A stretch of DNA of 64,000 bases from Shigella phage TB004, in the sequence record MW822011. One strand, 5' to 3'. Below, piece by piece: positions 10,099 to 45,792 of the stretch. The notes beneath the pieces are model-generated. The model was not told where the DNA came from and made no database searches. It saw nothing but the letters and a program-made list of their open reading frames with translations. A program made the translations under genes and the position numbers. How positions within the stretch are numbered: the first letter of the stretch is position 1; each line of letters starts with the position of its first letter.

Positions 10099-11916
10099 AT
10101 GATTAAGAATGAAATTAAAATTCTGAGCGATATTGAACATATCAAAAAGCGTAGCGGCATGTACATTGGTTCTTCTGCTAATGAAATGCATGAGCGCTTT
10201 CTGTTTGGTAAATGGGAAAGTGTTCAGTATGTACCTGGTCTTGTTAAGCTTATTGATGAAATTATCGATAACTCAGTAGATGAAGGTATTCGTACTAAGT
10301 TTAAATTCGCGAATAAAATTAATGTTACTATTAAAAACAATCAAGTAACAGTTGAAGATAACGGTCGCGGTATTCCACAAGCGATGGTTAAAACACCTAC
10401 CGGTGAAGAAATTCCTGGTCCTGTTGCTGCATGGACTATTCCAAAAGCAGGTGGTAACTTCGGTGATGATAAAGAACGCGTCACTGGCGGTATGAATGGT
10501 GTTGGTTCTAGTTTGACAAACATTTTTTCTGTGATGTTTGTCGGTGAAACTGGCGATGGTCAAAATAATATTGTAGTTCGTTGTTCAAATGGCATGGAAA
10601 ATAAATCGTGGGAAACTATTCCTGGAAAATGGAAAGGAACTCGTGTTACTTTCATTCCTGATTTTATGTCATTTGAAACTAATGAGCTATCTCAAGTTTA
10701 TCTTGACATTACACTAGATCGTCTCCAGACACTTGCAGTAGTTTATCCTGATATTCAATTTACCTTTAATGGTAAAAAGGTTCAGGGTAATTTTAAGAAA
10801 TATGCACGCCAATATGATGAGCATGCTATCGTTCAAGAACAAGAAAATTGTTCTATTGCGGTTGGTCGTTCGCCGGATGGTTTTCGTCAATTAACATACG
10901 TCAATAACATTCATACTAAGAATGGTGGCCACCACATTGACTGCGTTATGGATGATATTTGTGAAGACCTTATTCCACAAATCAAACGTAAATTTAAAAT
11001 TGACGTAACTAAAGCACGTGTTAAAGAATGTTTGACTATCGTTATGTTTGTTCGTGATATGAAAAACATGCGATTTGATTCTCAAACTAAAGAGCGTCTG
11101 ACTTCTCCATTTGGTGAAATTCGTAGTCATATTCAGCTTGATGCTAAAAAGATTTCACGTGCTATTTTAAATAATGAAGCAATTTTAATGCCAATCATTG
11201 AAGCTGCCTTGGCTCGTAAATTGGCGGCAGAAAAAGCAGCAGAAACTAAAGCAGCTAAAAAGGCCTCTAAAGCTAAGGTTCATAAACATATTAAAGCGAA
11301 TCTTTGCGGTAAAGATGCTGATACTACTCTTTTCTTGACTGAGGGTGATTCTGCTATCGGATATCTTATTGATGTTCGTGATAAAGAACTTCATGGTGGT
11401 TATCCATTGCGTGGTAAAGTTCTTAACAGTTGGGGTATGTCATATGCTGATATGCTTAAAAACAAAGAACTATTTGATATTTGCGCAATCACTGGATTGG
11501 TTCTTGGTGAAAAAGCTGAAAACTTGAATTATCATAATATTGCAATTATGACCGATGCTGACCATGATGGTCTAGGAAGCATTTATCCTTCTCTGCTCGG
11601 ATTTTTTAGTAATTGGCCAGAATTGTTTGAACAAGGAAGAATTCGCTTCGTCAAAACTCCTGTAATCATCGCTCAGGTCGGTAAAAAACAAGAATGGTTT
11701 TATACAGTCGCTGAATATGAGAGTGCCAAAGATGCTCTACCTAAACACAGCATCCGCTATATTAAGGGACTTGGCTCTTTGGAAAAATCTGAATATCGTG
11801 AGATGATTCAAAATCCAGTATATGATGTTGTTAAACTTCCTGAGAACTGGAAAGAGCTTTTTGAAATGCTCATGGGAGATAATGCTGACCTTCGTAAAGA
11901 ATGGATGAGCCAGTAG
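10099..11916 (+). CDS. 39: DNA topoisomerase II large subunit gp39, unsplit form (605 aa)
   Basis: GHKL ATPase and Toprim motifs; N-terminus MIKNEIKILSDIEHIKKRSGMYIGS; length corresponds to T4 gp39 plus gp60. Confidence 0.95.
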   Translation: MIKNEIKILSDIEHIKKRSGMYIGSSANEMHERFLFGKWESVQYVPGLVKLIDEIIDNSVDEGIRTKFKFANKINVTIKNNQVTVEDNGRGIPQAMVKTPTGEEIPGPVAAWTIPKAGGNFGDDKERVTGGMNGVGSSLTNIFSVMFVGETGDGQNNIVVRCSNGMENKSWETIPGKWKGTRVTFIPDFMSFETNELSQVYLDITLDRLQTLAVVYPDIQFTFNGKKVQGNFKKYARQYDEHAIVQEQENCSIAVGRSPDGFRQLTYVNNIHTKNGGHHIDCVMDDICEDLIPQIKRKFKIDVTKARVKECLTIVMFVRDMKNMRFDSQTKERLTSPFGEIRSHIQLDAKKISRAILNNEAILMPIIEAALARKLAAEKAAETKAAKKASKAKVHKHIKANLCGKDADTTLFLTEGDSAIGYLIDVRDKELHGGYPLRGKVLNSWGMSYADMLKNKELFDICAITGLVLGEKAENLNYHNIAIMTDADHDGLGSIYPSLLGFFSNWPELFEQGRIRFVKTPVIIAQVGKKQEWFYTVAEYESAKDALPKHSIRYIKGLGSLEKSEYREMIQNPVYDVVKLPENWKELFEMLMGDNADLRKEWMSQ

Positions 11917-38971: not shown

Positions 38972-38990
38972 AATAACATTGGCGGAAAAT

Positions 38991-39341
38991 ATGAATTTTA
39001 ATTATTACCCTATTCTATTAGAAAAAGACGCGAAACAACCAAAATGGCAGGGTCCTCAGTTTATTAAAGGCGTCTATCAATTAGTAGTTCCCAAAGATAA
39101 GATTTATAGCAGCAGTTATTGCACTGAATCCGCTTGCAGTATTTTCGGTAATAGTTCTCCGTATTGGAATTTTGATATAAAGCTGGATAGAAATATCGAT
39201 ATTTGGTTGAAAGCTATGGATATTGGCAATATCACGTTTGATGAGAATAATTACCATATTATTGGTCGCTTTTCCAAGCGTGGTAAAGAATTGTATTTTA
39301 CGCCTGAAATTGAAAGAAAATTTGATGCTAAACCGTATTGA
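38991..39341 (+). CDS. hypothetical protein (116 aa)
   Basis: ORF track frame 38979..39341; ATG at 38991. Confidence 0.45.
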   Translation: MNFNYYPILLEKDAKQPKWQGPQFIKGVYQLVVPKDKIYSSSYCTESACSIFGNSSPYWNFDIKLDRNIDIWLKAMDIGNITFDENNYHIIGRFSKRGKELYFTPEIERKFDAKPY

Positions 39342-39385: not shown

Positions 39386-39934
39386 ATGAAACAATACCAA
39401 GATTTAATTAAAGACATTTTTGAAAATGGCTATGAAACTGATGACCGAACAGGCACAGGAACAATTGCTTTGTTCGGTACTAAATTACGCTGGGATTTAA
39501 CTAAAGGTTTTCCTGCAGTAACGACTAAGAAGCTCGCCTGGAAAGCTTGCATTGCTGAGCTAATATGGTTTTTATCGGGAAGTACTAACGTAAATGATTT
39601 ACGTCAACGTACTCATGGATCTTTAATTGCAGGAAAAACAATTTGGGATGAAAACTACGAAAACCAGGCCAAAGACTTAGGTTATCATAGCGGTGAACTT
39701 GGTCCAATTTACGGAAAACAGTGGCGTGATTTTGGTGGTGTAGATCAAATTGTAGAAGTTGTTAATCGTATTAAAACATTTCCCAATGATAGACGTCAAA
39801 TTGTGTCGGCATGGAATCCAGCTGAACTCAAGCAGATGGCATTACCGCCTTGTCATATGTTCTATCAGTTTAATGTGCGTAATGGTCATCTTGATTTACA
39901 ATGGTACCAGAGAAGTGTTGATGTTTTCTTAGGT
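39386..39934 (+). CDS. td: thymidylate synthase, exon 1
   Basis: MKQYQDLIKDIFENGYETDDRTGTG ... QWYQRSVDVFLG, then in-frame stop at the intron 5' end. Confidence 0.95.
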
Positions 39935-40950
39935 TAATTTAGGCCTAGGTATAAGGTGACTTATACTTGTAATCTATCTAAACGGGGGACCTCTCTAGTA
40001 GACAATCCCGTGCTAAATTGTAGGACTACCCTTTAATAAATACTTCTATATAAAAAGAGGTGTTTATGAAAAGCGGAATTTATCAGATTAAAAACACTTT
40101 AAACGGTAAAGTGTATGTTGGAAGTGCTAAAGATTTTGAGAAAAGATGGAAGAGACATTTTAAAGACCTTGAAAACGGTGTTCACTCTTCTATAAAATTT
40201 CAAAGGTCTTTTAATAAACATGGTAATGTTTTTGAATGCTCTGTACTGGAAGAAATTCCATATGAGAAAGATTTGATTATTGAACGAGAAAATTTTTGGA
40301 TTAAAGAGCTAAATTCTAAAATTAATGGATATAATATTGCTGATGCGTCTTTTGGCGATGTGCTTTCAAATCATCCATTAAAAGAAGAAATTGCTAAGAA
40401 ACGAGCTGAAACTGTTAAAGCTAAGATGCTTAAACTTGGTCCTGATGGTCGGAAAGCTCTTTATGGTAAACACGGAAGTAAAAATGGCCGATGGAATCCA
40501 GAAAACCATAAGTTTTGTAAATGCGGTGTTCGCATACCGTCTTCGGCCGATACTTGTGGAAAGTGCCGAAAACGTTCAGGTGAAAATAACCCGTTCTTTA
40601 ATCACAAACATTCAGAAAAAACTAAAACTAAGCTATCTGAAAAGATGAAAGGCAAAAAGCCAGCTAACATCAAAAAGATTTCATGCGATGGGATTATTTT
40701 TGAATGTGCAGCCGATGCGGCTAGACATTTTGAAATTTCATCAGGATTAGTTACTTACCGTGTAAAATCTGATAAGTGGAATTGGTTCTACATAAATGCC
40801 TAACGACTATCCCTTTAGGGAGTAGGGTCAAGTGACTCGAAACGATAGACAACTTGCTTTAACAAGTTGGAGATATAGTCTGCTCTGCATGGTGACATGC
40901 AGCTGGATATAATTCCGGGATAAGATTAACGACCTTATCTGAACATAATG
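39935..40950 (+). mobile_element. td group I intron (1016 nt) carrying the I-TevI homing endonuclease gene
   Basis: exon 1 ends ...ttaggt; intron begins taatttaggcctaggtataaggtgacttatacttgtaatctatctaaacggg and ends ...ctgaacataatg; exon 2 resumes ctaccgttcaacatt (LPFNIASYA). Confidence 0.9.
40066..40803 (+). CDS. I-TevI: intron-encoded GIY-YIG homing endonuclease I-TevI (245 aa)
   Basis: [35 protein letters not shown]; Zn finger CKCGVRIPSSADTCGKC; C-terminal HTH. Confidence 0.95.
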   Translation: MKSGIYQIKNTLNGKVYVGSAKDFEKRWKRHFKDLENGVHSSIKFQRSFNKHGNVFECSVLEEIPYEKDLIIERENFWIKELNSKINGYNIADASFGDVLSNHPLKEEIAKKRAETVKAKMLKLGPDGRKALYGKHGSKNGRWNPENHKFCKCGVRIPSSADTCGKCRKRSGENNPFFNHKHSEKTKTKLSEKMKGKKPANIKKISCDGIIFECAADAARHFEISSGLVTYRVKSDKWNWFYINA

Positions 40951-41262
40951 CTACCGTTCAACATTGCATCATATGCTGCGTTAGTTCATATTGTAGCTAA
41001 GATGTGTAATCTTATTCCGGGAGATTTGATATTTTCTGGCGGTAATACTCATATCTATATGAATCACGTAGAACAATGTAAAGAAATTTTACGTCGTGAA
41101 CCTAAAGAGCTTTGTGAACTTGTAATAGGCGGATTACCTTATAAATTCCGCTATCTTTCTACTAAAGAACAATTGGAATACATTCTTAAACTCAGGCCTA
41201 AAGATTTCGTTCTTAAAGGTTACGAATCACACCCTTCTATTAAAGGAAAAATGGCGGTGTAA
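40951..41262 (+). CDS. td: thymidylate synthase, exon 2
   Basis: LPFNIASYAALVHIVAKMCNLIPGDLIFSGGNTHIYMNH ... KGKMAV; joined CDS is 286 aa. Confidence 0.95.
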   Translation, partial: LPFNIASYAALVHIVAKMCNLIPGDLIFSGGNTHIYMNHVEQCKEILRREPKELCELVIGGLPYKFRYLSTKEQLEYILKLRPKDFVLKGYESHPSIKGKMAV

Positions 41263-41285: not shown

Positions 41286-41531
41286 ATGATTTTACGATTT
41301 AAAGATACTTCTGGTGTAGTTCTTTTTACACTTCCTAATCCAAGCGAGTTAGAAGTTCCAGGACCAGAACAGCCTATTGTCATTTATGGCAAAAAATATT
41401 ATACTCATAAAATGACTCGTGAGTATTTTGATAATAAAATTTCTACAGTTAAAACTTCTTCAGATTGTTATTATGATATTACTGTTTTAACGGAAAAACA
41501 ATATGACGAATGTAGAACTTTAGCAGTATAA
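41286..41531 (+). CDS. hypothetical protein (81 aa)
   Basis: ORF track; 3' end overlaps the convergent GIY-YIG gene by about 12 nt. Confidence 0.45.
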
Positions 41532-42251
41532 ATATGATTCCCAACAATCTAGAGCACATCTTTTAGATATAAGTTTTCTGCTTATTCCAGTTTGACGCAC
41601 AGCTTCTGCTATTGTTGGATATTCTACCCCATCTATACTTACTCTTAGATGGGGTTTCTTTTTACCTCTTTGTGAGTCAGAAATTCGTTTTCTAACTTCA
41701 TTGGTATGTGTCTGTCCATAATATGGATTATTGATGCCTTTCATATTAAGTGCAGCGTTTCTTTCTTGGAACTTTTTGCTTATTTCTATAGCACGATCTA
41801 ACCCATAGTGTTCTTCTATAGTTTTACCTTTGATATCTTTAGGTCTACCATGTTTTTGCTTAAGTTCTTCTGGTGATAATTTTGAATTATTATTTTTAAT
41901 TGCATTTGAAATTTTATTAAGGATTTCTTGCTTTCTTGGGTGATGAGATAAGGTATCCCCAAACGATGCGTCTGCTATATTATACCCATTTTCCTTTGAG
42001 TCATATTCATGTATCCAATAATTTTCACGTTCAATAATGATAGATTTTTCGTATGGAAGTTCTTCTATGATTTTACATACGAAAGCATCTTTCCCATGCT
42101 TATTATAAGAACGCTGCAGCTTTATTGAATGATGATTTCCATTATCTAAATCTTTAAAGTGTCGTTTCCATCGTTCTTCAAAATTAATTGCACTTCCTAT
42201 ATAGTGCTTATTGGTTTTAGTGTTTATAATAGCATATATTCCAGATTTCAT
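41520..42251 (-). CDS. free-standing GIY-YIG homing endonuclease, I-TevI-like catalytic domain with a different C-terminal DNA-binding region (243 aa)
   Basis: [38 protein letters not shown] ... IIERENYWI ... [12 protein letters not shown] near-colinear with I-TevI residues 1-100; C-terminus NUMOD-like ([17 protein letters not shown]) plus HTH, no Zn finger. Confidence 0.85.
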
Positions 42252-44571: not shown

Positions 44572-44622
44572 TATAATTTGACTCACGGACGAGTCACTAT
44601 CTATTAACTAAGCGGAAAATTT

Positions 44623-45792
44623 ATGAGCACAGTTTTTAATACAAATCCAGTTGATGTTTTAAAAGAACCTATGTTCTTCGGTTCAGGTCTTGGTATTGCG
44701 CGTTATGATATTCAACGGCATAGAGTATTTGAAGAACTTATTGAGAAATCTTTATCATTTTTCTGGCGTCCTGAAGAAGTAAACTTAATGATGGATGCTG
44801 CACAATTTAACAAGCTTCCTCAATATCAGCAAGATATTTTTACTAATAACCTGAAGTATCAATCACTTTTGGATAGCATTCAGGGTCGTGCACCGTCTGC
44901 TGTACTTATGTCATTAATTTCAGACCCAAGCCTTGATACATGGGTTGCTACATGGACTTTTAGTGAAACTATTCACAGTCGTTCATATACTCATATCATG
45001 CGAAATCTTTATACTGATCCATCAAAGGTATTTGATGAGATTGTATTAGATAAAGCTATCATGAAACGCGCTGAATCTATTGGTCGTTATTATGATGACG
45101 TTCTAGTTAAGACTCGTGAATATCAGAATGCGGTTGAAGATTATGAAGGAATTTTATCAGAAGGATTTCGTAAAGAAGAGTTAGGCAAAGTTGTTGAATG
45201 TACTAAACGAGCACTAATGAAATCTCTTTACCTCTGCCTGCATGTAATCAACGCATTGGAAGCTATTCGTTTTTATGTATCTTTCGCATGTACCTTTAAC
45301 TTCCATAAGAACATGGAAATCATGGAAGGTAATGCCAAGATTATGAAGTTCATTGCACGTGATGAGCAGCTTCACCTTAAAGGCACCCAATATATTATTC
45401 GTCAACTTCAATCCGGTACTGATGGCGATGAATGGGTTAAAATTGCTCAAGAGTGTGAACAAGAAGCAGTTGATATTTTCATGGAAGTTAACCGCCAAGA
45501 AAAAGATTGGGCAGTTCATTTATTTAAAGATGGCGATGTTCCTGGATTAAATACAAATAGTATGTGGAGTTTTATTGATTACTTAACTGTATCTCGTATG
45601 AAACAGTGTGGTCTTCCATGCCCAATTACCGATGCTCCGGTTAAACATCCATATCCTTGGATTCGTGAATATCTTAATTCTGATAATGTTCAATCCGCGC
45701 CACAAGAAGTAGAACTGTCATCTTACCTTGTTGCACAGATTGATAATGATGTTGATGATAAAGTTATGATGAGTTTTAAAAAATATTTTTAA
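44623..45792 (+). CDS. nrdB: ribonucleotide reductase beta subunit NrdB (389 aa), intronless
   Basis: continuous ORF with di-iron ligand motifs; no intron interruption. Confidence 0.95.
   Translation: MSTVFNTNPVDVLKEPMFFGSGLGIARYDIQRHRVFEELIEKSLSFFWRPEEVNLMMDAAQFNKLPQYQQDIFTNNLKYQSLLDSIQGRAPSAVLMSLISDPSLDTWVATWTFSETIHSRSYTHIMRNLYTDPSKVFDEIVLDKAIMKRAESIGRYYDDVLVKTREYQNAVEDYEGILSEGFRKEELGKVVECTKRALMKSLYLCLHVINALEAIRFYVSFACTFNFHKNMEIMEGNAKIMKFIARDEQLHLKGTQYIIRQLQSGTDGDEWVKIAQECEQEAVDIFMEVNRQEKDWAVHLFKDGDVPGLNTNSMWSFIDYLTVSRMKQCGLPCPITDAPVKHPYPWIREYLNSDNVQSAPQEVELSSYLVAQIDNDVDDKVMMSFKKYF

Follow-up and report, generated by a model that had tools for sequence, protein, structure and literature searches.

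The td gene of Shigella phage TB004 is split by an intron, and the locus raises the question of whether the intervening element can still splice and home, and what its presence beside an uninterrupted nrdB says about the phage that carries it. The window analyzed here is the whole 64,000-nt stretch taken from sequence record MW822011. Its genes, those of a T4-like (Tequatrovirus) segment, are arranged in the order frd, a small ORF, td, a DUF5496 ORF, a minus-strand GIY-YIG gene, nrdA, nrdB, denA and rnlA, followed further on by pseT and then gene 30. We consider it very probable that td contains a functional, self-splicing intron of the T4/TuIa type that is spread by I-TevI-driven homing, in a genome segment whose nrdB is intron-less, with the splicing and endonuclease activities of the window element deduced from conservation.

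The td gene and the identity of its intron

Exon 1 of td occupies 39386..39934 (plus strand, 549 nt; ORF list) and exon 2 occupies 40951..41262 (plus strand, 312 nt including the stop codon; ORF list and splice translation). The reading frame ends just past 39934 and picks up again at 40951, and the first and last bases of the sequence in between are those of the T4 intron (5′ boundary ...TTAGGT|TAATTT, 3′ boundary ...ATAATG|CTACCG). Joining 39934 to 40951 gives a thymidylate synthase of 286 aa with 92.7% identity to that of T4, and the insertion point, between the codons for ...DVFLG and LPFNI..., is the same junction as in T4. The first-pass annotation had described a td gene interrupted by a 1016-nt intron with T4 boundaries, and it was right on the exact length (39935-40950), on the site and on the intact spliced product.

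The td group IA intron (39935..40950, plus strand) aligns with the td intron of T4T without a gap, 916 of the 1016 nt being identical (90.2%), and 90 of the 100 differences lie inside the ORF. Homology over 1 kb to a characterized element goes far beyond what chance would produce. The ten remaining differences fall at intron nt 6, 13, 14, 54, 94, 118, 119, 128, 883, and 986, so that nt 870 to 1016 contain just two. With the T4 intron, which belongs to group IA2 and is the reference system for homing, it shares the gene, the site, the length, the helices, the position and length of the ORF and the regulatory hairpin. It differs from T4 in P1, which is re-paired in the window through exon −4 G>A together with IGS 13/14 GA>AG, in A54G in J4/5, in a P9.2 G.U pair that becomes A-U, and in 28 amino acid changes in I-TevI.

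Much closer relatives exist. Of 50,697 phage records searched by megablast with the intron as query, 259 matched, 198 of them covering at least 80% of the intron, and an intron at least 99% identical is found in 20 records, including VEc20, BEU50, NRG-P0074, and the TuIa td sequence AY262157, deposited in GenBank in 2003 (99.5%); T4 scored 90.4% in the same search. The introns of TuIa, VEc20, BEU50, and NRG-P0074 are 99.5-99.6% identical to that of the window over all 1016 nt, and VEc20 differs at four sites, all in the ORF. Given this match of about 99.5%, the window intron can be classed from its sequence as a “TuIa-type” variant of the td intron. The TuIa td sequence reportedly came from the survey of Sandegren and Sjoberg (2004; J Biol Chem 279:22218). 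That survey is cited in PMC2993671, and the patchy distribution of the td and nrdB introns was published between 1987 and 2004, judging by the reference lists of PMC2988022 and PMC2993671.

Phages U115 (L008:850-1169) and N2 (L009:850-1103) carry natural td introns without an ORF, 320 and 254 nt long, with the same site and core as the window and 93-97% identity over the aligned part; they lack I-TevI through deletion of intron nt 96-791 and 85-846, respectively, whereas the ORF in the window is full. N2 has a small GUUC-UUUU-GAAC hairpin in place of P6a. A pattern scan of IMG/VR for the P7-P3′ signature returned 36 loci, three of which (L023, L032, and L042) are td introns; the other 33, which have no similarity to the intron or to td, were dropped as chance matches. 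L023 (IMGVR_UViG_2974770551_000001, about 10529-11548, minus strand) has a distant td intron of 1020 nt at the same site, 72% identical and encoding a 245-aa I-TevI homologue. Exon 2 of its TS gene starts AAACCA (Lys-Pro-Tyr rather than Leu-Pro-Phe), and its 5′ guide region is altered in step with this exon 2 start (UAAUGUUGG vs UAAUUUAGG), a joint change that suggests covariation in P10.

Many records of sister phages split td into two separate CDSs, each called “thymidylate synthase”, or carry the remark “unable to determine exon/intron boundaries”, and the HY03 record calls the td region prohead core and portal vertex proteins; these oddities are annotation errors and not biology. The correct annotation for the window is a td of two exons whose intron encodes I-TevI, which several sister records do not give. 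Just upstream, an ORF of about 115-120 aa without a Pfam match lies between frd and td (38979-39341, plus strand). VEc20 and CrRp10 annotate equivalent hypothetical genes, and in T4 frd and td overlap by 4 nt.

The RNA core and the intron-encoded endonuclease

By its helices, the element is a group I intron of subgroup IA with an intact core. The 5′ structured part (39935..40029, plus strand) holds the 3′ strand of P1 (the IGS, intron nt 9-14), P2, the 5′ strand of P3, P4, P5 and the 5′ strands of P6 and P6a, as placed by an MFE fold and by pair counts over 12 introns. The 3′ structured part (40781..40950, plus strand) holds the 3′ strands of P6a and P6, then P7, P7.1, P7.2, the 3′ strand of P3 (40844-40849), P8, P9, P9.1, P9.2 and the terminal G at 40950. 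P7 is formed by 40805-40809 paired with 40876-40880, and the extra helices P7.1 and P7.2 of subgroup IA are present between P7 and P3′. The 3′ strands of P6a and P6 overlap the end of the I-TevI ORF, and P6a uses the final I-TevI codons, an arrangement also described for the T4 system (PMC2988022).

With the ORF deleted (intron nt 1-95 joined to 847-1016), an MFE fold recovers P2, P3, P4, P5, P6, P6a, P7.1, P7.2, P8, P9, P9.1, and P9.2, that is, every helix outside the pseudoknot. Each of the 77 core pairs of the window, from P1 to P9.2 and with the P3/P7 pseudoknot counted, is a standard one. We aligned 12 td intron cores with 72-100% identity (the window, T4T, VEc20, sutha, Ursula, HMGUkp2, LF82-4, U115, N2, and three IMG/VR contigs). 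Pairing is found in 99.0% of the cells of this alignment and falls to 30-45% once the 3′ partners are shifted along; the 99.0% is partly circular because the tested structure was drawn from the window and T4 sequences, so that the compensatory changes alone are independent. Such changes on both sides occur in eight pairs of P7.2, P8, and P9.2, a result matched by none of 500 shuffles. Three of the altered pairs belong to P7.2 (GGGUC/GACUC), and P7.1 (UCCC/GGGA) is invariant. In P1, the pairs −4/12, −5/13, and −6/14 show one-sided changes with pairing held, and the wobble between U-1, the last base of exon 1, and G9 is invariant in all 12 introns; the window intron ends in G (40950). P3, P4, P5, P6, P7, and P7.1 do not vary in the set and are identical to those of the self-splicing T4 intron, so that a covariation signal is not possible there. 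Three P9.1 pairs of L023 were scored as unpaired where MAFFT set this helix one column out of register; the GUUC/GAAC helix exists in the sequence.

A scan of the whole window with Rfam at the gathering threshold gave no match. Under permissive settings, RF00028 matched in part at 40672-40902 (36.2 bits, E = 2.8e-7, threshold 50) with its 5′ half mis-aligned into the ORF. The shortfall is due to the 738-nt ORF in the P6a loop, which the model is unable to span; the introns of N2 and U115, naturally without an ORF and with cores 93-97% identical to that of the window, score 72.6 and 70.3 bits against the same threshold of 50. Degeneration of P3-P9 on alignment with T4 had been raised in the first-pass annotation as the way in which its reading could fail, and the alignment revealed a core that is not degenerate, with every helix intact.

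The gene for the homing endonuclease I-TevI (40066..40803, plus strand) starts with ATG and encodes 245 aa in 738 nt, as established from Pfam, PDB and T4 comparisons. Its product is 88.6% identical to T4 I-TevI, and the two genes differ by 47 synonymous and 28 non-synonymous codons; the differences are densest in the linker and the zinc-finger region (84% and 79% identity). The catalytic residues Y6, Y17, R27, H31, H40, E75, and N90 are all kept, as are the zinc-finger cysteines 151, 153, 164, and 167. All four Pfam modules are above threshold, namely the GIY-YIG domain (PF01541, E = 1.4e-16), the linker zinc finger, which sets the cleavage distance (PF22635, I-TevI_ZnF, E = 1.8e-17), and, in the C-terminal DNA-binding part, the minor-groove helix NUMOD3 (PF07460) and the helix-turn-helix domain I-TevI_DNA-bd (PF20987, E = 1.9e-31). 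Among solved I-TevI structures in the PDB, those of the catalytic domain (1mk0 and 1ln0) match residues 1-97 (E ~3e-57), and those of the DNA-binding domain (1i3j and 1t2t) match residues 130-245 (E = 5e-66). The earlier claim of a full-length I-TevI with an intact zinc finger therefore agrees with the 245-aa ORF, its catalytic residues and its four cysteines, and the gene looks functional by sequence.

A hairpin of 12 bp at 40036..40067 (plus strand; −11.2 kcal/mol, z = −6.4) adopts the T4 fold and would hide both the ribosome binding site and the start codon of I-TevI. The late-promoter-like sequence TAATAAATA, likewise conserved, sits in its 5′ arm. A128G changes a U-A pair of the hairpin to U.G and a TT>AA change falls in the loop, which is the loop variant that PMC2988022 mentions for TuIa. 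In T4, the hairpin and the late promoter in its 5′ arm restrict I-TevI translation to late infection and protect splicing (PMC2988022).

Two less favorable views of the element have to be weighed against these data. One is that the intron is a decaying relic that splices poorly, with td a pseudogene and the phage relying on host thyA. The sub-threshold RF00028 score points that way, as does A54G, which falls in J4/5 and is common to the window, VEc20, and U115. Laboratory growth of T4 does not require td, which could relax selection. Decay is, however, difficult to reconcile with a core set apart from the self-splicing T4 intron by those ten non-ORF differences, with helix changes that keep pairing (P1 13/14 with exon −4; P9.2 G.U to A-U), with a reading frame intact in both exons, and with orthologues that exceed the Rfam threshold once the ORF is gone; an intron at least 99% identical is moreover carried by 20 independent phage genomes, and we regard a relic as extremely improbable. 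The other view grants splicing and holds that I-TevI is no longer a homing enzyme, being inactive or kept just as an autorepressor or passenger. It draws on the 28 amino acid differences from T4 and their concentration in the linker and zinc-finger region, but the retained catalytic and zinc-binding residues, the excess of synonymous over non-synonymous codon changes and the four Pfam modules over threshold argue against it, and the near-identical intron in very different exon backgrounds, described below, implies recent mobility. A loss of homing thus appears very unlikely to us, if somewhat less so than decay of the intron itself.

Mosaic structure around the insertion site

The nearest relative of the window switches at the intron. 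Exon 1 is closest to the intron-less CrRp10 over nt 1 to about 500, and its nt 201-400 show 0/200 differences from CrRp10 vs 35-37/200 from VEc20 (35), sutha, and T4; the last 25 exon nt differ from VEc20 at five positions. The intron has four differences in 1016 nt from VEc20 and seven from sutha, and exon 2 has, in its 312 nt, four from sutha, 38 from VEc20, and 128 from CrRp10. Compared in 150-nt blocks, the stretch from 37.1 to 39.8 kb is CrRp10-like, and that from 39.95 to 42.35 kb (2.4 kb) is 99-100% sutha-like, spanning the intron, exon 2, the DUF5496 ORF and the minus-strand GIY-YIG gene. Exon 2 of td exists in two very different allelic forms, the window/sutha/T4 type and the CrRp10 type (L003:4550-4861), which are 128/312 nt apart; in exon 1, by contrast, the window and CrRp10 are almost the same.

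The Mosigvirus-type phages 348Ecol098PP and PTE-Eco05 have about 107 differences from the window in exon 1 nt 16-483 and are identical to it over the last 66 nt (484-549) except at 525-526, in the cleavage motif, and at 528 in one of them. A near-identical intron with a short shared exon flank in divergent exon backgrounds fits what repeated homing with co-conversion (PMC2988022) would predict. A search for an intron-less td allele with the flanks of the window, as a recipient or a product of precise loss, found none (best full-length match 90%), and the exact exon-intron junction of the window was found nowhere else in the phage collection (best 97/100). Since intron type and exon type are uncoupled, the presence of the intron is a poor lineage marker, and intron content tracks recombination rather than descent. 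The first-pass annotation had taken the mosaic intron content as informative for both lineage and homing dynamics; the second part stands, with a real mosaic at the intron, and the first needs qualifying. The local mosaic is one more natural case of exon co-conversion and exchange boundaries at T4-like nuclease genes, a phenomenon already documented.

The T4 work (PMC2988022) provides a mechanism by which the window element may operate. The td pre-mRNA would fold, and two guanosine-initiated transesterifications would excise the intron and restore the thymidylate synthase frame. A transcript made late in infection, with its start inside the hairpin, would expose the ribosome binding site and allow I-TevI to be made. 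By analogy with T4, the enzyme would then bind the intron-less td of co-infecting phages across the insertion site and cut at CNNNG 23-25 bp upstream, and the recipient would acquire the intron, along with exon DNA on its flanks, through repair of the double-strand break. The switch of nearest relative at the intron, CrRp10-like on the left and sutha-like on the right, is the kind of footprint that homing may be expected to leave.

The cleavage motif position (39908..39912, plus strand, −27 to −23 from the insertion site) reads CAGAG in the window, and this is the sole unusual detail of the locus. CAACG is found in all seven other td sequences checked (T4, VEc20, sutha, CrRp10, L046, L047, and L023), and CAGAG was not seen elsewhere. 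The change from CAACG is a synonymous dinucleotide AC>GA substitution (CAA CGN to CAG AGA, Gln-Arg) that keeps C1 and G5, the critical bases of CNNNG. Because the intron splits the I-TevI binding site, an intron-bearing td allele is no target in any case. According to PMC5009752, many central NNN triplets make poor I-TevI substrates, and CAGAG is not mentioned there; the variant could offer a natural substrate on which to test how much sequence change the enzyme tolerates.

A free-standing GIY-YIG gene (41520-42251, minus strand, 243 aa) follows td at a distance of 260 bp. It is flanked by the DUF5496 ORF and nrdA, runs antisense to all its neighbors, and takes the place that nrdA.1 occupies in T4. 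Its product is 45% identical to I-TevI over the full length, with NUMOD3 and a weak I-TevI_DNA-bd match and without a zinc finger (Pfam). The gene was found in just 26 phage records, eight of them Escherichia phages (98.5-99.7%) and 18 Klebsiella phages (90-92%); of the latter, KP179 (Jiaodavirus) alone was examined, and there the gene and an uninterrupted td are arranged tail to tail. It co-occurs with an intron-less td in Ozark, with an ORF-less intron in N2, where it is likewise just downstream of td, and with a full intron in sutha and the window.

This second endonuclease gene is one reason to ask whether the mosaic is an I-TevI footprint at all. General homologous recombination between co-infecting T4-like phages, or a break made by the 41520-42251 endonuclease, could give the same mosaic, and we therefore regard such an origin as a serious possibility, though one that we do not favor. 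The sutha-like tract reaches 2.4 kb to the right and includes the second endonuclease gene, found both in phages that have the td intron and in phages that lack it; mosaicism extends over the whole td region in T4-like genomes, and directly to the left of the intron the match is to a third lineage (L046) and not to sutha. On the other hand, the left switch point is at most about 65 nt from the insertion site and near the I-TevI cut site, as repair of a break there predicts, and CrRp10 carries the canonical CAACG site. The observations can also be joined to our preferred reading, I-TevI homing, in a more specific form: the intron would have homed recently into an intron-less td of CrRp10 type, co-conversion on the left would have stopped no more than about 65 nt from the insertion site, and CAGAG would be either a scar of the repair or a target shifted under selection. 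Beyond this, the 41520-42251 paralogue might act on the td region too and contribute to the spread of td introns by a kind of collaborative or trans homing, even where the intron lacks an ORF, as it does in N2. The combination as a whole is speculative, and we think it unlikely that all of it holds.

Intron content of nrdB and of related phages

In the window, nrdB (44623..45792, plus strand) is uninterrupted and encodes 389 aa. The ORF aligns end to end with spliced T4 NrdB and reads through where the 598-nt T4 intron would sit (equivalent site 45289|45290), and a search at this site for an nrdB intron in the 598-nt T4 form or the longer RB3 form found neither, so that the absence of an nrdB intron reported earlier is borne out by a single continuous ORF. 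With the T4 nrdB intron and its I-TevIII the window thus shares no feature, the host gene being present and the intron missing. This is the usual state in T4-like phages, most of which align over the nrdB intron site without a break; in T4, RB6, and others the match covers one side only. Among phage records, the td intron is present in about 196-198 of the 678 that bear td, and 118 records contain at least 80% of the nrdB intron. A td intron without an nrdB intron is therefore a common and long-known pattern, and the window element, functional-looking by its sequence, is a mobile intron already described. The third intron host gene of T4, nrdD, is outside the window, so the intron content of the whole genome is not readable from it.

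The gap between nrdA and nrdB is just 51 nt (44572-44622). T4 holds the HNH endonuclease gene mobE there and VEc20 another homing endonuclease gene, whereas the window has neither. Within nrdB, identity to T4 is 97.8% downstream of the intron site and about 80% upstream. A past intron loss or co-conversion at the T4 site was considered as the origin of this jump and rejected, as most phages also miss query nt 1-63/75 and an uninterrupted nrdB is common. A hypervariable stretch lies at about 45130-45215 (codons ~170-197), some 75-150 nt upstream of the T4 intron site; judged by comparison across phages, it is a general feature of the gene and not tied to the intron. SholemSchwarzbard matches the window at 100% over 45140-45440.
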